The translations under genes were made by a program, and so were the position numbers. The notes beneath the pieces were generated by a model. It saw only the letters and a list, made by a program, of their open reading frames with translations. It did no database searches and was not told the origin of the DNA. 64,000 nucleotides of DNA from an uncultured Bacilli bacterium (GTDB taxonomy: Bacteria; Bacillota_I; Bacilli_A; RF39; UBA660), in assembly GCA_934129885.1 (NCBI GenBank), contig CAKOWU010000002.1, forward strand, positions 76,070 to 140,069, read 5' to 3'. This document shows positions 1 to 23,802 of the stretch, piece by piece (position 1 is the stretch's first letter; each line of letters opens with the position of its first letter).

Positions 1-71
1 TAGACAAAATAATTTTGAAAATAATATGAAAAAATTTTGCTTTAACTATGCCAGAACTAATAAAGATATAT

Positions 72-102
72 GGAAAACAAAAGACCTTGATGATAAGGTC
101 TT
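72..102 (-). terminator. Rho-independent terminator closing the paralog-1 transcript, about 270 nt past its stop codon
   Basis: Perfect 8-bp stem AAGACCTT/AAGGTCTT (81-88 / 95-102) with a 6-nt loop, followed on the minus strand by TTGTTTTCC. Confidence 0.6.
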
Positions 103-140
103 AAGTGAACATTCCTAACCTGAATTATTGGACAAGTCCG

Positions 141-215
141 ATAAAACACGTTGTTAGCGTTGGAGTTAAAATAAGGTGCGATAAGACGCATCACTTTTCA
201 AAAGTATCCATCATG
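141..215 (-). repeat. Degenerate AAC-rich partial copy of the 3' coding region of the adjacent gene (template-repeat-like relic)
   Basis: Minus strand reads ATCGCACCTTATTTTAACTCCAACGCTAACAACGTGTTTTAT. It shows 29/41 identities to each hypervariable block. In 6 of the 12 mismatches versus copy 1 this copy carries A. Confidence 0.35.
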
Positions 216-262
216 GCCCGCTCTTCTGATTAGGCCATGTGTAAAATTTAAATTTAAATCGT

Positions 263-373
263 CAGGCAGCTGCTGACGCAGTCGCCTGATTATTCTGCGA
301 GACTTTCGCTATCGCTCGTCCCGCTCCTGCGTCCCTTTCAGGGACTTATCAATTGCTTCGTTTATATTTTATC
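263..373 (-). repeat. Conserved GC-rich 3' non-coding element, copy 1 (partner 22213..22323)
   Basis: 111 nt immediately after the stop codon, only 3 substitutions versus the partner. Contains hairpins GTCCCT-GAA-AGGGAC and CGTCAG-N7-CTGACG. Far more GC-rich than surrounding DNA. Confidence 0.85.
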
Positions 374-1849
374 TTATCCTACGGTATACGGACTATCTGA
401 AGTCCCGTCTCCCTCAAGAGAGATGTCAGAGGATAGATAAAGAACTGGCGCCGCGCCGAAACTGTTAAGAGCGAAGTTGTAGATCAGGTTGCCGCCACTG
501 CCCACATTGAACACGAGGCTAACGTTGGAGCTAGAGGAAGGCGCGATTGTCCATGAAAAACTTTTTGCCGCAGGTCCTGCGTAAATCCAGTTATGCGTAT
601 CACTATTATTATAACATGATGATGTAACAGAATATGCATTTACATTTGTACATGCGGAATTGGTACTGGCTTTTACATAATCACTTTGATTCATTAATCC
701 TACTTTACCTTTCCATTTATACGTTTGTTCCTGCGATATTGTATTTGATAAATTGGTTTCATCTTTTTTTGTTACTCCTACATTAAACATATGTGATACT
801 ACTATATTTTGAACATTACTACTTAAACTATTATACCAATCATTATTTAAATATGTATTTAAATAAGCTTCTTTCTCCGGTAAATCTTTTAAAGTTCCAT
901 CTACAGTCCGAGGCATTTGGGTTACATTTTTTCCATTGGTATCAAGTGTAGTTGTTTTACTTCCCCATACATTGCAGCCCAAGTATGAAGATGCTTTAGA
1001 AACATAACAGTAATCTGCACTTGTACTAGAATATCTAGTACCATCAGTTGAATTTGAACCTGTTACACCAGTAATGCTTGTTGAATACCCAGGGTCAAAC
1101 ACCTTATTACCTATACTACCATTCTTTATTACCTTGAGTGTGTTATCACTTTCTACCGATATTATTCTATATGTATCTGTACCTAATGTAATATAGTTAT
1201 TTGGGTTTGCTCCTCTATACACATATCTGCCTGCTTCGGTAGTATCTTTATATAAACCATCACCAGATGTTGTCGCTAACGTTTTTAAATCGTCTATACT
1301 TTTACCATTAGAAGTTATTGGTATATCACTCGTACCATCACTTTGTGTAAAGTCTAAAGTAGCGGTTAGTGATGCATCTAGTTTTGTGGGCTGTGATGTG
1401 ATTTTACTATTATATGTTACACTTACATTAAGTATAGCACTCTCTCCTTTACGTAATACTCCGCCTTCTTTTAAACCTTTTGTTTCAAATAATACTGCTG
1501 GGTTATCTTCTTTAGTTAAAGTTATTTTATTAAGTTTGGCGTCTAAACTACCTTTATTTTCTACCTTAATATTATAAGTTATAGAGTCTCCTGGAGACAC
1601 TAAATTGGTACTAAAAGTCGCAGTTAGTTTTTCAAAGGTTGGCTGCTCTTTTACTGATGCACTACCTACTTTATTACTAGTAGTAATATCTGTTATCTCT
1701 ACATCCCATGTAGTAGATATATTAGATGTACCAGATATCTTTAAACTACTTGCGAAAGCCGCATATCCTACGGCCATAACAACTATAACCGCAAGTAAAC
1801 CTCCTATAAGTATATTTTTATTATTCTTATAACTTCTATGTCTATTCAT
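374..1849 (-). CDS. Secreted/surface protein, paralog 1: basic N-terminus plus one TM with a GYAAFASSLKISG motif, and a C-terminal W-x-x-x-P...G-A-A-P-V-L-Y-L lectin-like module with a hypervariable block
   Basis: 491-aa ORF, GGTGAT RBS, highly similar by eye along its length to 22324..23802 apart from a linker region and the hypervariable block. Confidence 0.85.
   Translation of the reverse strand: MNRHRSYKNNKNILIGGLLAVIVVMAVGYAAFASSLKISGTSNISTTWDVEITDITTSNKVGSASVKEQPTFEKLTATFSTNLVSPGDSITYNIKVENKGSLDAKLNKITLTKEDNPAVLFETKGLKEGGVLRKGESAILNVSVTYNSKITSQPTKLDASLTATLDFTQSDGTSDIPITSNGKSIDDLKTLATTSGDGLYKDTTEAGRYVYRGANPNNYITLGTDTYRIISVESDNTLKVIKNGSIGNKVFDPGYSTSITGVTGSNSTDGTRYSSTSADYCYVSKASSYLGCNVWGSKTTTLDTNGKNVTQMPRTVDGTLKDLPEKEAYLNTYLNNDWYNSLSSNVQNIVVSHMFNVGVTKKDETNLSNTISQEQTYKWKGKVGLMNQSDYVKASTNSACTNVNAYSVTSSCYNNSDTHNWIYAGPAAKSFSWTIAPSSSSNVSLVFNVGSGGNLIYNFALNSFGAAPVLYLSSDISLEGDGTSDSPYTVG
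455..531 (-). other. Hypervariable block, copy 1 (DGR variable-region-like)
   Basis: 26 codons, 17 ending in C. 20 differences from copy 2, 18 of them at codon positions 1-2. Followed 3' by the 12-nt G/C-only run 447..458. Confidence 0.6.
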
Positions 1850-1919
1850 ATTTTATCACCTTTACTACTTTAAATATACATAATATTTGGGATGAATATT
1901 GTCGAACATTTTCTTGTAC

Positions 1920-1985
1920 GAAACACCTAAAACGTCCTATTGCTACTATGGCAATGATATCAAAAAATAGAAATAATGTAAATAA
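1920..1985 (-). promoter_or_regulatory. Conserved upstream box, copy 1 of 3
   Basis: AAACACCTAAAACGTCCTATTGCTACTATGGCAATGATATCAAAAAA is shared with 23873..23945 and 16801..16860. TGTCGAA (0A-box-like) lies at 1900..1906. Confidence 0.5.
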
Positions 1986-2002
1986 CAAAGCATATATTTG
2001 TA

Positions 2003-2032
2003 AGAAAAAGAAGACCTATTTGACAGTCTTCT
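2003..2032 (-). terminator. Terminator after aspS
   Basis: Stem AGAAGAC/GTCTTCT (2009-2015 / 2026-2032) followed by TTTTTC on the minus strand. Confidence 0.5.
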
Positions 2033-3773
2033 ATCTTATCTTTATATGAACTTCTCTAAGTTGTTGTTCTGAAACAGTACTAGGAGAACCCATCATATTA
2101 TCAATACCTAAAGTATTAGGTGGGAATGCTTGTACTTCTCTTAAATTTTTCTCATCACGTAATAACATAAGCATTCTATCTATTCCAGGAGCCATACCGG
2201 CATGTGGAGGAACTCCATACTTAAATGCTGTATAAAGTGATTTAAATTTTTCTTTAACAATATCTTCTGTATAGCCTACTTCCTTAAATCCGTGCATTAA
2301 ACTATCTAAATCATGGTTACGTACAGCACCTGAACTCATTTCAAAGCCATTACATACAAAGTCATATTGATAAGCAAGTATATCTTTTATATCGCCATTA
2401 TATGCGTTCATACCACCTTGTGGCATACTAAATGGATTATGTCCAAAATCCCATTTATTTTCTTCTTCGTTCCACTCAAACATAGGCATATCATTAATAA
2501 TACAAAATTCGTATTTATTAGGATCTATTAATTCTAACTTTTTACCTAACTCTGTTCTTATTTGACCGGCGTAATTTGCCGCGACTGATTCTTTTCTGTT
2601 AGCGATAAAGAATATAACATCTCCTTTTGAAAGTTCTGCCTTACTAATTAGTGCTTTTCTCTCATCATCAGATAGAAATTTATCAATAGGGCCTTTAAAG
2701 GTATTATCGCCTAAAACAGATATATATCCAATACCAGGCATACCAATTGAAGATGCGAAATCTACTATTTCATTAAACCAACTATTAGATTTATCTGCGA
2801 TGCCTTCTACTTTTATACCTCTAACAATGGACTTTTGAAAAGGTTTAAATGTAGTATTCGCAAATTCTTCTGTTAAATCTATTATCAAAAGGGGATTTCT
2901 TAAATCTGGTTTATCAGTACCATATTTAAGCATTGCCTCTTTATATGGTATTCTTTTAAATGGTCTTTCTGAAACTTCTTTTGATGAAAAATGTTTGAAA
3001 GTATCGTAAAATATTTCTTCACCTATTTTATAAACATCTTCTTCAGTTGCGAAAGCCATTTCAAAATCTAACTGGTAAAACTCAAGGGTTCTATCAGCAC
3101 GAGAGTCTTCATCTCTAAAGCAAGGTGCGATTTGATAATACTTATCAAAGCCCCCTACCATAAGTAACTCCTTGAATATTTGTGGAGCCTGCGGTAAAGC
3201 ATAAAACTGACCTTTATACTTTCTAGATGGAACTAGAAAATCTCTAGCACCCTCTGGAGATGAAGCTGTTAAAATAGGTGTTTGAACTTCAGTAAAACCT
3301 AAACTATCCATTTTATTTCTTAAATATTTTAATAGTTCACTTCTAAACTTAATATTATCATGTACTCTATTGTTTCTCATATCTAAATAGCGATACTTAA
3401 GTCTTAATTCTTCATTTACTTTAGTGCTTGTTTTTATCTCAAATGGTAATTCATGTAAAGACTTGCCAAGTAGTGTAAACTCTTTAATAAGTATCTCTAC
3501 TGTACCAGATTTAATTTTTGGATTAAAGTTTTCTTCATCACGCATTCTAACAACGCCCTCTAAAGAAATAGTAGATTCTTTAGCAAGCCCATTAAATATA
3601 GAATCATCGTTACTTACTATTTGAACAGTACCAGTTTCGTCTCTTAAATCTACAAATATAACTCCGCCATGATCTCTAATGTTTTCTACCCAGCCTGCGA
3701 CCTTTACAGTTTTACCAAGAACGTCCTCAGTAATTTCACCGGGTCTTATATTTCTATATATATTATCCATCAT
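2031..3773 (-). CDS. aspS: Aspartate--tRNA ligase, probably non-discriminating given linkage to gatCAB and tRNA-Asn
   Basis: 580 aa with class II aaRS motifs (FRDED..R, GGMAPGIDR-like GMAPGIDRMLML) and an OB-fold N-terminus. Confidence 0.95.
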   Translation of the reverse strand: MMDNIYRNIRPGEITEDVLGKTVKVAGWVENIRDHGGVIFVDLRDETGTVQIVSNDDSIFNGLAKESTISLEGVVRMRDEENFNPKIKSGTVEILIKEFTLLGKSLHELPFEIKTSTKVNEELRLKYRYLDMRNNRVHDNIKFRSELLKYLRNKMDSLGFTEVQTPILTASSPEGARDFLVPSRKYKGQFYALPQAPQIFKELLMVGGFDKYYQIAPCFRDEDSRADRTLEFYQLDFEMAFATEEDVYKIGEEIFYDTFKHFSSKEVSERPFKRIPYKEAMLKYGTDKPDLRNPLLIIDLTEEFANTTFKPFQKSIVRGIKVEGIADKSNSWFNEIVDFASSIGMPGIGYISVLGDNTFKGPIDKFLSDDERKALISKAELSKGDVIFFIANRKESVAANYAGQIRTELGKKLELIDPNKYEFCIINDMPMFEWNEEENKWDFGHNPFSMPQGGMNAYNGDIKDILAYQYDFVCNGFEMSSGAVRNHDLDSLMHGFKEVGYTEDIVKEKFKSLYTAFKYGVPPHAGMAPGIDRMLMLLRDEKNLREVQAFPPNTLGIDNMMGSPSTVSEQQLREVHIKIR

Positions 3774-7063: not shown

Positions 7064-7139
7064 TGGCGCCTGATGTAGGACTCGAACCTACGACCTAACG
7101 GTTAACAGCCGTGCGCTCTACCGACTGAGCTAATCAGGC
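7064..7139 (-). tRNA. tRNA-Asn (GUU), encoded CCA
   Basis: Cloverleaf read by hand: acceptor GCCUGAU/AUCAGGC, anticodon loop CUGUUAA, T-arm GGUUCGAGUCC. Confidence 0.9.
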
Positions 7140-7143
7140 AAAG

Positions 7144-7219
7144 TGGCGCCCAATGTAGGACTCGAACCTACGACCTAACGGTTAACAGCCGTGCGCTCTA
7201 CCAACTGAGCTAATTGGGC
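7144..7219 (-). tRNA. tRNA-Asn (GUU), second tandem copy
   Basis: Body identical to 7064..7139, with compensated acceptor-stem changes (GCCCAAU/AUUGGGC). Confidence 0.9.
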
Positions 7220-7221
7220 AA

Positions 7222-7480
7222 AAGTATAAAAAGACAGTTAAGCGTCCCCATATAAGGACGAATAACTGTAACTCGCGGTACCACCTTATTTATCACACGA
7301 AGTGATCTCTCTATAGTTTCAAATGAAACTTATAACGCGGTAACGGGTTACATCCGATTTATCCTACTGTTATTTCAGATAAATTACTCTGTGGTGTTAT
7401 TCACAGTAGTATTATTATTAGTTCTCATCATACTAACTTTCTGTAAATAAGTGACTACTGTTACTTCTCCACTTCCTAGT
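7222..7480 (-). promoter_or_regulatory. T-box riboswitch leader, candidate Asn (AAC) specifier
   Basis: T-box sequence AAUAAGGUGGUACCGCGAG (7271-7290). Terminator ACAGUUA..CGUCC-loop-GGACG..UAACUGU plus CUUUUUAU. Stem I base GUGG/CCAC encloses AGAAGUAA and UGAAUAACA, with AAC-A (7396-7398) directly before the closing helix. Confidence 0.75.
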
Positions 7481-7507
7481 ATCTATAAAATATTTATAAA
7501 CAAATTT

Positions 7508-7584
7508 TGGTAGTCCGTACGGGATTTGAACCCGTGAATGCATGCGTGAAAGGCATGTGTGTTAACCAATTTCACCAACGGACC
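7508..7584 (-). tRNA. tRNA-Glu (UUC)
   Basis: Anticodon loop CUUUCAC, acceptor GGUCCGU/ACGGACU, encoded CCA. Confidence 0.85.
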
Positions 7585-7592
7585 AAATTAAA

Positions 7593-7669
7593 TGGTGGGC
7601 CTGGCAGGACTTGAACCTGCGACCCCTCGCTTATCAAGCGAGTGCTCTAACCAACTGAGCTACAGGCCC
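7593..7669 (-). tRNA. tRNA-Ile (GAU)
   Basis: Anticodon loop CUUGAUAA, acceptor GGGCCUG/CAGGCCC, encoded CCA. Confidence 0.85.
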
Positions 7670-11705: not shown

Positions 11706-14441
11706 CTATTTTCCATTTACAACTTCATTACAGTGTGTACATATACCACCAGTTATCTCAAGTTCATCGAAGTAATTCCAGCATCTTTCGCATCTAATAC
11801 CTTCAAACTTCTCTACCTTAACCATACAGTTGTCATATTTAGTAAACTCATTCGTACTTAAAACAACATCAGAAACAATTAATAACTGTTTTAAATCCGG
11901 TAATATATCATGAAGCATCTCTTTATCTTCTTCTCTTAAATTCAAATAAACCTTTGCCTCTAATGACTTACCAATAATCTTTTCACTTCTTGCCTCTTCA
12001 AGAGCCTTATAAACATCGTTCTTAATGCCAAAGAAAGCGTTCCATTTTTCCTTCAATTCTTCTTTCTCTTTATAAATTAAAACTTCTGGGAAACTTTCTA
12101 AATGAACAGATTCTTCCTTTCTATAAGGCATAAATTTATAAACTTCTTCACTAGTATAAGGAAGTACTGGAGCCATAAGCCTTACTAAATTATAAATAAT
12201 TTCATATAAAACAGTCTGAACACTACGTCTGCGAACACTGTCAGCCTTATCTATATATAAAATATCTTTAGTAAAATCAAGGTAGAAATTAGATAAACTA
12301 GATATATAATTATTAAATAGCTTGTATATCTCATCAAAATTATAATCATCATAATTCTTTCTAATATTCTTTACAAAATCATTTAAATTTACAAGCATAT
12401 ATTTATCAACACTAGAAAGTCTGTCATAAGCAATCTTATCTTTTTTAGGATTAAAATCAGAAATATTACCTAAAATAAATCTATAAGTATTTCTAATCTT
12501 TCTATAACTCTCTTTAACTTGCGTAAGAAGTTCACTACTAAACCTAACATCTTCTGTAAAGTCAACACTAAGAGCCCAAAGTCTTAAAATATCAGAACCA
12601 TGTTTTGATACAATGTCCATTGGAGCCACTACATTACCAATAGACTTACTCATCTTAAGGCCCTTACCATCTAAAACAAAACCAGATGATAGAAGTTCCT
12701 TATATGGGCTTTTACCAAAAGCCGCAACACTACAAATTAATGAAGAATTAAACCATCCTCTATATTGGTCAGAGCCCTCAAGATAAATATCGGCAGGATA
12801 ACTCATACCTCTTTCCATAAGTACTCCCGCAAATGAAGTTCCAGAGTCAAACCAAACATCCATTATATCAGTTTCTTTAGTAAATTTACCATTCGGAGAT
12901 GCTGGATTTGTATAACCCTTTGGTAATAAATCTACCGCATCCTTTTCAAACCAATAATTAGAGCCATGTTCTCTAAATAACTTTGAAACATGCATCATAA
13001 CATCATAATCTACTATTTCAGAGCCATCTTCATTATAGAATATTGGAATAGGTACACCCCAAGCCCTTTGTCTTGAAATACACCAGTCTCCTCTGCCCTC
13101 AATCATATTACGAATTCTAGTCTTACCCCATTCAGTATGGAATTTTATCTTATTATCAATTTCATTTAATAAATCATCTCTTATCTTATCCACACTACAG
13201 AACCATTGCTTTGTTGCTCTAAAAATAATAGGCTTTTTAGTACGCCAATCATGTGGATATGAGTGCTTAATAAACTTAAGTTTAAGTAGATAACCATTTT
13301 CATCTAACCAACCAGTTATAGCCTTATTCGCGTCTTCAAAGAATAAACCCTCAAACATACCAGACTCTTTATTTAAAGTACCGTCATCATCAACACCATT
13401 AACCATATCAAGGTTACAGTTCTTACCAACAATAAAGTCATCCTCACCATAAGCAGGTGCCGTATGAACAAGTCCAGTTCCAGCTTCAGTTGTGACATGA
13501 TGTCCAATAACCACAGGGCTAATTCTATCCATAAATGGGTGTTTATAAGTAATACCTACTAAATCAGTACCTTTAAAAGTATTTAAAGTCTCATACTCAT
13601 CAAAGCCAAACTCTTCCATTAAGCCTGAAACAAGTTCTGTTGCGACAACGTAGTTAGAACCATTACTTTTTATAAGAGAATATTCTAGATTTTCACCTAC
13701 ACACACGCCAGTATTTCCCGGTAAAGTCCATGGAGTAGTTGTCCAAATAACAAGTTTATCTCCAGCACTTACAAAATCATTACCTTCTTCTACTGTAAAA
13801 GCTACAAAAACTGAAGGATCTTTTCTGTCCTTATACTCAATTTCAGCCTCCGCAAGTGCAGTTTCTGAAGAAGGAGACCAATATACTGGTTTTAATCCCT
13901 TAAATATTAAACCTTTTTTAGCCATTTTAGCAAATATCTCAATTTGTCTTGCCTCATATTCTTTTTTCAAAGTTATATAAGGATTATCAAAATCTCCCAT
14001 AATATTAAGTTTTATGAAATCATTCTTCTGCTTATCTACTTGCTTTAAAGCATATTCCATACATAACTTTCTAAAATCTGCGACGCTCATTTCTTTTCTG
14101 TTTACACCACTATTAGTAACCGCCTGTTCAATAGGAAGACCATGAGTATCCCATCCAGGAACGAAGTCTACAAAATAGCCTTCCATCATCTTTGAACGAT
14201 TTATAAAATCCTTAAGAATTTTTTGAAACGCATGACCAATATGAATATTTCCGTTAGCGTATGGTGGACCATCATGTAAAACAAAAGGTTTATTACTTTT
14301 ATTTTTCTCTTTTATCTTATTATATAAATCCATCTCTCCCCATTTTTCTCTCTGTAAAATCTCATTCTCTGCGAGATTGCCCCTCATTTTAAACTCTGTT
14401 TTTGGCATTAATAAAGTATCTTTATAATCCATTTCTCTCAT
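11706..14441 (-). CDS. ileS: Isoleucine--tRNA ligase
   Basis: 911 aa with HIGH (NIHIGH), KMSKS and a C-terminal zinc ribbon CERCW...CTHC. Confidence 0.97.
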   Translation of the reverse strand: MREMDYKDTLLMPKTEFKMRGNLAENEILQREKWGEMDLYNKIKEKNKSNKPFVLHDGPPYANGNIHIGHAFQKILKDFINRSKMMEGYFVDFVPGWDTHGLPIEQAVTNSGVNRKEMSVADFRKLCMEYALKQVDKQKNDFIKLNIMGDFDNPYITLKKEYEARQIEIFAKMAKKGLIFKGLKPVYWSPSSETALAEAEIEYKDRKDPSVFVAFTVEEGNDFVSAGDKLVIWTTTPWTLPGNTGVCVGENLEYSLIKSNGSNYVVATELVSGLMEEFGFDEYETLNTFKGTDLVGITYKHPFMDRISPVVIGHHVTTEAGTGLVHTAPAYGEDDFIVGKNCNLDMVNGVDDDGTLNKESGMFEGLFFEDANKAITGWLDENGYLLKLKFIKHSYPHDWRTKKPIIFRATKQWFCSVDKIRDDLLNEIDNKIKFHTEWGKTRIRNMIEGRGDWCISRQRAWGVPIPIFYNEDGSEIVDYDVMMHVSKLFREHGSNYWFEKDAVDLLPKGYTNPASPNGKFTKETDIMDVWFDSGTSFAGVLMERGMSYPADIYLEGSDQYRGWFNSSLICSVAAFGKSPYKELLSSGFVLDGKGLKMSKSIGNVVAPMDIVSKHGSDILRLWALSVDFTEDVRFSSELLTQVKESYRKIRNTYRFILGNISDFNPKKDKIAYDRLSSVDKYMLVNLNDFVKNIRKNYDDYNFDEIYKLFNNYISSLSNFYLDFTKDILYIDKADSVRRRSVQTVLYEIIYNLVRLMAPVLPYTSEEVYKFMPYRKEESVHLESFPEVLIYKEKEELKEKWNAFFGIKNDVYKALEEARSEKIIGKSLEAKVYLNLREEDKEMLHDILPDLKQLLIVSDVVLSTNEFTKYDNCMVKVEKFEGIRCERCWNYFDELEITGGICTHCNEVVNGK

Positions 14442-14451
14442 CTCCTCATAA

Positions 14452-14660
14452 CAAAAAAAGTCCTTAAATCTTAAGGACGAAAAAATCGCGGTACCACCTT
14501 ACTTTATAGATATAAATCTATACACTCAAAACTATAACGCGTTACCGTTCATCCCTACTTAAATTTTAGGAAAACACATCAAGAGTGATCCATATATTAA
14601 TGATTTATTAGTTCACACCAACCACTAATTCTCTGCGAAATCTATATAATATAACGTCTC
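14452..14660 (-). promoter_or_regulatory. T-box leader of ileS (candidate AUC specifier at 14587-14589)
   Basis: AAGGUGGUACCGCG (14487-14500), then terminator GUCCUUAAGAUUUAAGGAC plus a U-run immediately upstream of ileS. Confidence 0.8.
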
Positions 14661-14671
14661 TATCAACTGTT

Positions 14672-15127
14672 TTAAAGTTCCACTTTTTCAATTTCATCAA
14701 TAACCTCAAGTTGTTGCTCTACAATGTTTTTAAGCCTTCTTTTAAATACTGTAACATTTCTTTGAAGTGTCATCGCATCATTTTCAATCTTTTCTGCTCT
14801 TTGTAACGCCTCATTAACTATTCTACTAGCGTTCTTTTTAGCGTCATCAAGCATAATCTCACTTTCCTTATGAGCCGCAACTTTAAGTTGATCGGAAGTC
14901 TTTTGTGCCATAATAATTGCTCTATTCAAAGTATCTTCCATTCTTTCATATTGGGCAAGTCTTTCCATGACCTCAGGATTGCCTTGATTTTTCTTAAGTC
15001 TTTCAATCTCTTTATCTTTAGCGTTTATCTCTGAAATCATCTCTTCAATACGTGTAATGATTTGATCTAAAAAGTTATTAACTTCTTCTGGATCATAGCC
15101 CCTTAGTACACGATTAAATCTTTCCAT
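14672..15127 (-). CDS. divIVA: DivIVA-domain cell-division protein
   Basis: N-terminal F-x-x-x-LRGYDxxEV motif, coiled coil, position upstream of ileS as in Bacillus. Confidence 0.85.
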   Translation of the reverse strand: MERFNRVLRGYDPEEVNNFLDQIITRIEEMISEINAKDKEIERLKKNQGNPEVMERLAQYERMEDTLNRAIIMAQKTSDQLKVAAHKESEIMLDDAKKNASRIVNEALQRAEKIENDAMTLQRNVTVFKRRLKNIVEQQLEVIDEIEKVEL

Positions 15128-22212: not shown

Positions 22213-22323
22213 CAGGCAGCTGCTGACGCAGTCGCCTGATTATCCTGCGAGACTTTCGCTATCGCTCGTCCCGCTCCTGCGTCCCTTTCAGGGACTTACC
22301 AATTGCTTCGTTTATGTTTTATC
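22213..22323 (-). repeat. Conserved GC-rich 3' non-coding element, copy 2
   Basis: 108/111 identical to 263..373. Confidence 0.85.
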
Positions 22324-23802
22324 TTATCCTACAGTATACGGACTATTTGAAATCCCGTCTCCCTCAAGAGAGATATCAGAGGATAGATAAAGAACTGGCG
22401 CCGCACCGTAACTGTTAATAGCGTAGTCGTGGCTCAGGCCGCCGTCACTGTACACATGGAACATGTTGCTAGCGTTTAAGGTAGAGGAAGGCGCGATTGT
22501 CCATGAAAAATTTTTTGCCGCAGGTCCTGCGTAAATCCAGTTATGCGTAGCACTTTCTTCATAACATGATGAATTATTCCAATATGCCATTACACTTGTA
22601 CACTCTGAATTAGTACTTGCTTTTACATAATCACTTGGATTCATTAATCCTACTTTACCTTTCCATTTATACGTTTGTTCCTGCGTTATTGTATTTGATA
22701 AATTTGTTACATTATATTTCGTTACACCAACATTAAACATATGTGATACTACTATATTTTGAACATTACTACTTAAACTATTATACCAATCATTATTTAA
22801 ATATGTATTCAAATAAGCTTCTTTCTCCGGCAAATCTTTTAAAGTTCCATCTATAGTCCAAGGCATTTGTGTTACATTTTTTCCATTAGTATCAAGCGTT
22901 GTTGTTTTGCTTCCCCATACTTTACAGCCCAAGTATGAAGATGCTGAAGAATCATAACAGTAATCTGTCCTTGTACTAGAATATCTAGTACCATCAGTTG
23001 AATTTGAACCTGTTACGTCAGTAATGCTTGTTGAATACCCAGGGTCAAACACCTTAATACCTATACTACCATTTTTTATTACCTTTAGTGTGTTATCACT
23101 TTCTATGGCAATTATTCTATATGTATCTGTACCTAATGTAATATAGTTATTTGGGTTTGCTCCTCTATATACATATCTGCCTGCTTCCGTAGAATCAGTA
23201 TAGAGTCCGTCACCACTGGTAACTACTTTTGCTTTTAACATTTCTGCGGCAGCATTACTAGTATCTCCACCAGTACTACCACTACTTCCGTCACTTTGGA
23301 CAAAGTCTAATGTAACTGTTAGAGATGCATCTAGATTAGTAGGTTGTGAGGTAACGCTATTACTATAAGTTACTTTTACTGACAATGTAGAAGATGTACC
23401 TTGTTTTAAGACATCACCTTCTTTTATACCACTTGTTTCAAATAATATCGCAGAATTATTATCTTTTTTTAGGGCTATTTTATTAAGTTTGGCATTTAGG
23501 TTACCTTTGTTTTCTACTTTTATATTATAAGTTATACTATCGCCAGGCAACACTAAATTAGTATTAAATGTAGCCGTTAGCCCGTCATAACTAGGTGTGC
23601 CACTTACTGATGCACTACCTACTTTATTACTAGTTGTAATGTCAGTGATTGATATATTCCAAGATGTAGATATATTAGATGTACCAGATATCTTTAAACT
23701 ACTTGCGAAAGCCGCATATCCTACCGCCATAATAACTACAACCGCAAGTAAGCCTCCTATAAGTATGCTTTTATTATTCTTATAACTTCTATGTCTGTTC
23801 AT
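22324..23802 (-). CDS. Secreted/surface protein, paralog 2
   Basis: 492 aa with the same architecture as 374..1849. Confidence 0.85.
   Translation of the reverse strand: MNRHRSYKNNKSILIGGLLAVVVIMAVGYAAFASSLKISGTSNISTSWNISITDITTSNKVGSASVSGTPSYDGLTATFNTNLVLPGDSITYNIKVENKGNLNAKLNKIALKKDNNSAILFETSGIKEGDVLKQGTSSTLSVKVTYSNSVTSQPTNLDASLTVTLDFVQSDGSSGSTGGDTSNAAAEMLKAKVVTSGDGLYTDSTEAGRYVYRGANPNNYITLGTDTYRIIAIESDNTLKVIKNGSIGIKVFDPGYSTSITDVTGSNSTDGTRYSSTRTDYCYDSSASSYLGCKVWGSKTTTLDTNGKNVTQMPWTIDGTLKDLPEKEAYLNTYLNNDWYNSLSSNVQNIVVSHMFNVGVTKYNVTNLSNTITQEQTYKWKGKVGLMNPSDYVKASTNSECTSVMAYWNNSSCYEESATHNWIYAGPAAKNFSWTIAPSSTLNASNMFHVYSDGGLSHDYAINSYGAAPVLYLSSDISLEGDGISNSPYTVG
22405..22481 (-). other. Hypervariable block, copy 2 (DGR variable-region-like)
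   Basis: 15 of 26 codons end in C. See the pairwise comparison with 455..531. Confidence 0.6.

Follow-up and report, generated by a model that had tools for sequence, protein, structure and literature searches.

The window, i.e., the whole stretch of 64,000 nucleotides analysed here, has a GC content of 30% and comes from a 114-kb contig of a Hadza gut metagenome. Close to its start, on the minus strand, lies a gene encoding a protein with a hypervariable C-terminal block, and a second paralog is found further along on the same strand. Read in the orientation of the gene, the sequence 3′ of paralog 1 consists of a GC-rich structured stretch (360..266), an AT-rich spacer, a hairpin (239..212), GATACTTTTGAAAAGTGATGCGTCTT, a short AAC-rich segment (182..141), unrelated sequence and a terminator-like hairpin (102..81). 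The features to which we refer are the following, the loci of relatives being designated by L numbers, the template repeat of a diversity-generating retroelement (DGR) by TR and the variable region by VR:

72..102, minus strand: intrinsic-terminator-like hairpin (AAGACCTT..AAGGTCTT plus a T run), found by terminator scan, about 40 nt past the end of TR homology
141..182, minus strand: probable TR stub, the mutated 5′ end of a DGR template repeat, cut down to 42 of about 110 nt, with IAPYFNSNANNVFY as its product in the VR frame; assigned from shuffle-tested alignment, a predicted TR and collinearity with L056
183..253, minus strand: non-coding flank upstream of the TR, comprising the AT-rich spacer, the hairpin CATGGCC...GGCCATG (239..212) and GATACTTTTGAAAAGTGATGCGTCTT; conserved in L005, L020 (two copies) and L038, and alignable with the 5′ region of the L056 TR
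266..360, minus strand: element of three hairpins, GC-rich (56%), within the 3′ UTR of the target gene (covariance model R1, seven copies)
374..1849, minus strand: predicted DGR target gene, paralog 1 (P1), an ORF of 491 aa whose N-terminal hydrophobic membrane anchor is followed by an Ig-like domain and, at the C-terminus, by a DUF6273-like domain; the 1687 homologues found have a C-terminal block that is hypervariable
431..457, minus strand: GC-rich invariant 3′ end of the VR, GGCGCGGCGCCAGTTCTTTATCTATCC, at an IMH-like position; identical or nearly so in P1, P2 and the paralogs of L005, L020 and L038
458..547, minus strand: VR of paralog 1, delimited by NNC-codon differences between P1 and P2, by the family alignment and by the homology of 141..182 to 547..506
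22216..22310, minus strand: second GC-rich three-hairpin element, behind paralog 2, with no hairpin, flank or TR stub after it
22324..23802, minus strand: predicted DGR target gene, paralog 2 (P2), 492 aa, 79% identical to paralog 1, with its VR at about 22408..22497

Within 458..547, P1 and P2 differ almost only at codon positions 1 and 2 of C-ending codons (AGC/ACC, CTC/AAC, GGC/TAC, AAC/GGC, ATC/AGC, TAC/CAC and others), and the sequences flanking this block are nearly identical. The protein search that recovered the 1687 homologues provided 36 aligned members sharing the pattern SWTIAPxSxSxAxxVFxVxSxGxLxxxxAxxSxGAAPVLYL, in which the scaffold is invariant and the x positions are free. A hypervariable C-terminal block in a fixed scaffold, varying at codon positions 1-2 of NNC/AAY-derived codons, is what defines a DGR target, and on this evidence, drawn from sequence, both paralogs are read as carrying genuine DGR variable regions. 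The GC content of the VR reaches 53% in surroundings of 30%, as expected if template adenines had been randomized. The invariant stretch that closes it (431..457), whose counterpart in the TR of L056 is GGCGCGGTCCCAGCTCTTGG, would function as an IMH-like initiation site.

The domain that carries the VR resembles DUF6273, described as a C-lectin-like domain with DGR variable regions at its C-terminal end (PMC10743442; PMC11792537), the Pfam matches, at 18.9 and 22.2 bits (E=1.4e-3 for paralog 1 and 1.4e-4 for the other), falling short of the gathering threshold of 23.5; some homologues carry a precomputed PF19789 assignment. The domain is poorly modelled by AlphaFold, with pLDDT below 50 at residues 414..466, i.e., across the VR. 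Foldseek matches to this model are confined to the N-terminal Ig-like part (Ig-like appendage domains), and a PDB profile search with the target protein returned no match. The closest homologue (P0002, 91%) lies in a different context, where the cassette is absent.

Two further observations concern the protein family. Upstream of the VR, and outside the region homologous to the TR, the family alignment reveals a second, milder variable patch, SVNAYxxxSSCYNNS, around residues 400-416 of P1 (590..660, minus strand). In turn, a prepilin-type N-methylation signal (PF07963) stands in for the N-terminal anchor and the Ig domain in many members (homologues P0085, P0091, P0095 and P0101-P0109; L005 11693..12991; L012 1407..2370), with pseudopilin genes nearby, which suggests from sequence that some DGR-varied domains may be displayed on type IV pilus-like fibres.

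The minus strand of the AAC-rich segment (182..141) reads ATCGCACCTTATTTTAACTCCAACGCTAACAACGTGTTTTAT, letter for letter as quoted in the first-pass annotation, and this sequence occurs only once in the window. Aligned without gaps, it shares 31 of 42 positions with copy 1 (547..506) and likewise with copy 2 (22497..22456); the 29 of 41 reported earlier was right in substance and slightly off in the count. The same can be said of the adenines, as the segment has A at six of the 11 (not 12) positions where it differs from copy 1, and at four of 11 for copy 2. The remaining differences are mostly C/T and G/A changes at scaffold positions, and with five of the 11 differences from copy 1 located away from adenines of the segment the two do not constitute a clean TR/VR pair. 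A functional TR would differ from its VR (almost) exclusively at TR adenines and would match it over its full length, including the IMH-like 3′ end; here only 42 of about 110 nt are present and the GGCGCGG...CCAG end is absent.

The likeness itself is nevertheless solid. The local alignment of 100..262 against both genes, proposed in the first-pass annotation as a check, gave a Smith-Waterman score of 20 with each gene, above every dinucleotide shuffle (mean 11.4, sd 1.3, maximum 17-18; 0 of 1000 reach 20), and in a blastn search of the VR against the whole window the segment is the best non-self match (E=0.002). The homology to the VR, as well as that to the TR of L056, ends at about 141-148, past TTTTAT as had been noticed. 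The weaker TR/VR similarity thought to continue upstream to about 215 did not hold up: the local alignment halts at ATCGC, and 183..253 is homologous instead to the non-coding hairpin and flank situated 5′ of the TR in L056 and found also in L005 and L038.

When translated in the VR frame the segment gives IAP-Y-F-N-S-N-A-N-N-V-F-Y, retaining 17 of the 20 near-invariant columns of the family and placing Asn (AAC) at four of the six hypervariable codons covered, an enrichment at the variable positions of the VR family that rests on a small sample and is partly circular. A TR predicted by putting A at the sites where VR1 and VR2 vary matches the segment at 35 of 38 positions (E=1.7e-8), against 29 of 38 for either real VR, a comparison that is also partly circular, since the rule favours A-rich sequence; this predicted TR aligns over its full length with the independent, real TR of L056. 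Across the 42 nt there are five mismatches to the predicted TR, four of them G-to-A or C-to-T transitions. The segment being only 42 nt long, each of these statistics rests on few positions.

A scan of the genome collection provided 54 loci from related MAGs, with several target paralogs per genome, and two of these loci illustrate what stands behind the target when the cassette is preserved. L054 contains a complete target-TR-avd-RT DGR whose target has the same N-terminal module as that of the window. Its VR (12735-12844) is followed by a TR (13021-13130) located 105 nt past the target stop codon, the TR adenines match the variable VR positions (A-to-N pattern), and 3′ of the TR come an avd-like gene, an ORF and an RT with the motifs LPIGNETSQ and YMDD. 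L056, whose cassette is the closer of the two and was found through an RT fragment, presents in succession a hairpin, the GGGATACTTT flank, an AAC-rich TR (APISGNSNNVWNVNSSTGYLNNNNARNGNGAVPAL), a spacer of about 330 nt, a MutS_I-domain gene (33 bits, cutoff 20.6), bAvd (E=2.7e-7) and an RT (RVT_1 in two halves). Its contig is without the target gene, and its TR is identified by composition and context, with no TR/VR pair on the contig. In the L056 RT (1238..2338) one in-frame TAA (1862-1864) separates the N-terminal motifs from LPIGNLTSQ in a cassette that otherwise looks intact; it could be a recent inactivation or an assembly error. The gene order in the clade is target, TR, (MutS-like), avd and RT, with the TR directly behind the target, which bears out the order of target, then TR, then RT invoked in the first-pass annotation. 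A search for full-length TRs in all fetched loci retrieved those of L054 and L056 only, no RT was found in L045, and none of the relatives found has an intact cassette at the orthologous aspS-target-Yip1 position.

Window 253..148 is collinear with 22..123 of L056 through the AT spacer, the hairpin, the GGGATACTTT flank and the start of the TR, over 106 columns (E=4e-15), the flank of L056, like the alignment as a whole, being only 74% identical to the window. By this collinearity the segment can be said to occupy the TR position by descent, at a place homologous to a bona fide TR locus in a relative, and its upstream neighbour is a TR flank rather than coding sequence. Past the segment, a weak similarity between the terminator region of the window and the end of the L056 spacer (E=0.64) is not counted as evidence.

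Nothing of the machinery that would follow a TR is found in the window. Motif scans and tblastn with the L054 and L056 RTs revealed no RT in the window or in L001, and motif and tblastn searches for avd and MSL (the MutS-like gene) in the same sequences were likewise negative. Gene calls in the 10 kb adjoining each end of the window include no RVT_1, which brings the sequence covered to 84 kb of the 114-kb contig, all of it without a DGR-type RT. Just beyond the window start, where the first-pass annotation had suggested looking for RT remnants, there are none and the next genes are Yip1, argS and asnB; past the other end come polC, cdaA and clpP, and both sides are thus housekeeping. In the window no RT C-terminal remnants follow the segment, and it is in the sister loci L038, L012 and L016 that RT or MutS-like remnants appear at the equivalent place.

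These sister loci offer several deletion products. In L038 the target, the GC element and the hairpin abut what remains of an RT, namely its 94 C-terminal codons (70% identity, E=6e-24, in comparison with the C-terminus of the L056 RT). L016 has the target, a GC-rich element and then a truncated MutS-like gene (53% identity, E=1e-27). In L005 the same flank leads to a TR stub that breaks off at a different point and has a gap inside it, which fits neutral decay. By the same sequence comparison, the window would be one more member of this deletion series, in which everything past TR position ~42 was lost.

L012 deserves separate mention. Its target gene (124..795) is cut short and closes with a VR that turns AAC-rich and TR-like in its 3′ half (GNNANNSNGAAPAL*), and an L056-type TR-downstream spacer precedes a 60-aa ORF (1119..1301) in which a MutS-like N-terminus is fused to an RT C-terminus. 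Judging from its sequence, this locus appears to be a VR::TR recombination product with an internal deletion.

We consider it highly probable that 141..182 represents a decayed remnant, or stub, of the 5′ end of a DGR template repeat that once stood directly behind the gene at 374..1849, the cassette having since been deleted and the stub having drifted. This is the option of a decayed TR already raised in the first-pass annotation, and it is supported by the location of the segment behind an L056-type hairpin and flank, by the TR position in L054 and by AAC at hypervariable codons. The ancestral order would have been a target gene with a C-terminal VR, the GC-rich 3′ element, the hairpin, the TR, a structured spacer, a MutS-like gene, avd and RT. 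In such a cassette the RT would copy TR RNA into cDNA with errors at adenines and the cDNA would replace the VR, thereby varying the ligand-binding face, at the putatively C-lectin-like tip, of a surface protein. The target-TR-(MSL)-avd-RT cassette would have been duplicated together with its target, and in this copy a deletion would have removed the sequence from TR position ~43 onward through the RT, leaving a stub of 42 nt in which five more point changes would then have built up, four being G-to-A or C-to-T transitions. Since it is without the 3′ initiation end, the spacer and the RT, the stub would be non-functional as a template. What is seen directly is the homology, the place of the segment and the series of deletions among relatives; from these we infer both the past activity of the cassette and its present inactivity.

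The VRs would now be frozen, barring action in trans by a DGR located in another part of the genome. All three members of the 90% cluster of P1 share one and the same VR, and for P2 seven of eight members do so, though in both cases the members differ elsewhere. Such constancy across the sampled strains fits frozen VRs and is no proof of them. The exception for the P2 VR is L060, the syntenic locus of another strain. Compared with window 22620..22340 (minus strand), L060 11185..11465 comes after 1184 nt of near identity and shows dense differences along some 280 nt, a part of them at synonymous sites beyond the VR. As the synonymous changes extend outside the VR, the tract points to recombination or gene conversion of the C-terminal module with another paralog, and not to fresh mutagenic retrohoming.

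If the stub is what we propose, it marks both paralogs as former or current DGR targets, and with the diversifying machinery lost in this copy the binding surfaces would probably be fixed in this strain. A more elaborate version, which we regard as unlikely, is that the decay is non-random: the lineage would repeatedly duplicate targets with their DGR cassettes, delete TR-RT, freeze a selected VR and keep the 3′ module for a DGR acting in trans or for the swapping of VRs. The module kept may comprise the invariant VR end, the C-terminal tail, the 95-nt GC-rich three-hairpin element and the hairpin, and could be either the cis recognition site of a single master DGR acting in trans or a recombination handle by which VR modules are swapped between paralogs, in which case the L060 tract would be one such swap.

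Another explanation, very improbable in our estimation, is that the segment is not a TR at all but a piece of a third, decayed paralog, i.e., of a pseudogene that bore a VR. It would account for the non-A differences, and the similarity of the segment to each VR equals that of VR1 to VR2 in the same stretch; moreover, paralogs are numerous in these genomes and their C-terminal modules recombine. What such a pseudogene should have, and the locus lacks, is coding homology upstream of ATCGC, where the SWT... of the scaffold would be expected. The local alignment to the genes stays within the TR-homologous part, upstream there is non-coding sequence, the hairpin and flank also seen 5′ of the real TR of L056 and of the TR stub of L005, and AAC is enriched exactly at the hypervariable codons.

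We give equally little credence to the possibility that the stub is still in use, be it as a short TR that still serves the 5′ half of the VR with the help of an RT encoded elsewhere, or as part of a conserved 3′ untranslated or small RNA with another role. The flank and the stub are about 90% conserved between the window and L005, the region 60..376 folds well (z-score of -5.6), a terminator-like hairpin comes after the stub, and the 84 kb of contig over which an RT was sought are not the whole genome. Nonetheless, priming and initiation depend, in known DGRs such as that of BPP-1, on the GC-rich 3′ end and the spacer, and these elements, found after the TR in L054, L056 and L012, are missing from the stub. 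It further has five non-A mismatches to the VR at scaffold positions, the VRs are static across strains, and the stub in L005 breaks off elsewhere and is internally gapped. Finally, a chance likeness between AAC-rich low-complexity stretches, for which the short match (38-42 nt) and the modest blastn E value within the window could be invoked, is scarcely credible given that the match keeps the frame and register of the VR scaffold, and it is refuted by the shuffle test together with the independent collinear alignment to the L056 TR locus.

As a decayed DGR, then, the locus can be placed among known systems. Architecture D designates MSL-containing DGR cassettes with avd, exemplified by the Legionella DGR (Wu et al., 2018; PMC5758913). 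L056 conforms to it, in that a single cassette brings together on one strand a TR, a small gene with a MutS_I domain, an avd-like gene and a DGR-type RT (LPIGNxTSQ, YMDD), and in the relatives the cassette adjoins a target gene with a C-terminal VR. The window, in contrast, keeps only the first 42 nt of the TR, and MSL, avd and RT are gone. The clade also departs from the Architecture D examples in that the TR stands directly behind the target, past the conserved GC-rich element and the hairpin, and in its host, an uncultured gut Bacilli lineage.

The mechanistic reference is the DGR of Bordetella phage BPP-1, with the order mtd-avd-TR-brt. Common to both are the adenine-specific flow of information from TR to VR (seen in L054), TR codons rich in AAC, a GC-rich invariant VR 3′ end and the placing of the VR at the end of the C-terminal domain, which here may be C-type-lectin-like, to judge by the weak DUF6273 match. 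The present systems differ in the order target-TR-(MSL)-avd-RT, in being chromosomal and not phage-borne, in the many target paralogs per genome and in that the window copy would be dead. The DUF6273 targets of gut-phage DGRs likewise have the VR at the C-terminal end of a DUF6273-like domain (PMC10743442; PMC11792537); unlike them, those considered here have a sub-threshold Pfam match and are cellular proteins with a membrane-anchored or pilin-like N-terminus, rather than phage tail proteins.

The decay itself has a precedent in the literature: all3226 of Nostoc PCC 7120 retains remnant TR-VR homology without a nearby RT, and was read as the loss of the diversification machinery after duplication, and Anabaena sp. 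90 has a degraded DGR (Vallota-Eastman et al., 2020; PMC7517822). There, as here, a dispersed DGR-target paralog keeps a TR-like remnant with the RT absent. The phylum and the target family are different, and in the present case a deletion series (TR, RT and MSL stubs, VR::TR fusion) can be traced across sister loci. The segment and these loci together provide a clear deletion series for the decay of DGR cassettes beside duplicated targets in uncultured human-gut Bacilli, which helps to annotate DGR targets without a nearby RT. No new mechanism is revealed: this is a decayed DGR of known architecture, and a new example of a known phenomenon, ordinary decay.

The GC-rich element between the target and the flank has features of its own. 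Covariance model R1 finds seven copies, every one just behind a target paralog: the two of the window and five in relatives (L005 11370-11464, L020 10101-10195 and 12463-12557, L038 871-962, L003 11424-11524). The 95-nt element lies directly past the target stop codon and is 83-91% conserved even when the upstream proteins are only ~52% identical. Among its variants there are G-U wobble changes, as would suit an RNA read from the sense strand, and a compensatory change at one pair only, and its last hairpin (278..260), together with ATTTAAATTT, has a terminator-like score in the terminator scan. The element may be a simple terminator or stabilizer; a role in DGR target recognition would be speculation. 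A different GC-rich structured stretch is found at the same post-stop position in L016 (1617..1740), behind a more distant target paralog, and has only short motifs (GCGAGCGACTGCG) in common with the element of the window.

Exact-pattern scans for the GC element and the predicted TR core in viral_contigs, and for the GC element and the hairpin-flank in metagenome_contigs, gave no match, both collections being without the ENA assemblies of close relatives. The Rfam scans (gathering thresholds over the whole window, permissive over 1..420) gave no hit at the stub or at the GC element, their sole hits being T-boxes and tRNAs in other parts of the window. Four tRNA genes and two T-box leaders lie at 7067..7669, 7251..7486 and 14470..14675 (minus strand), one leader being ahead of gatCAB-aspS and the other ahead of the gene for a 911-aa tRNA synthetase, an ordinary housekeeping context.
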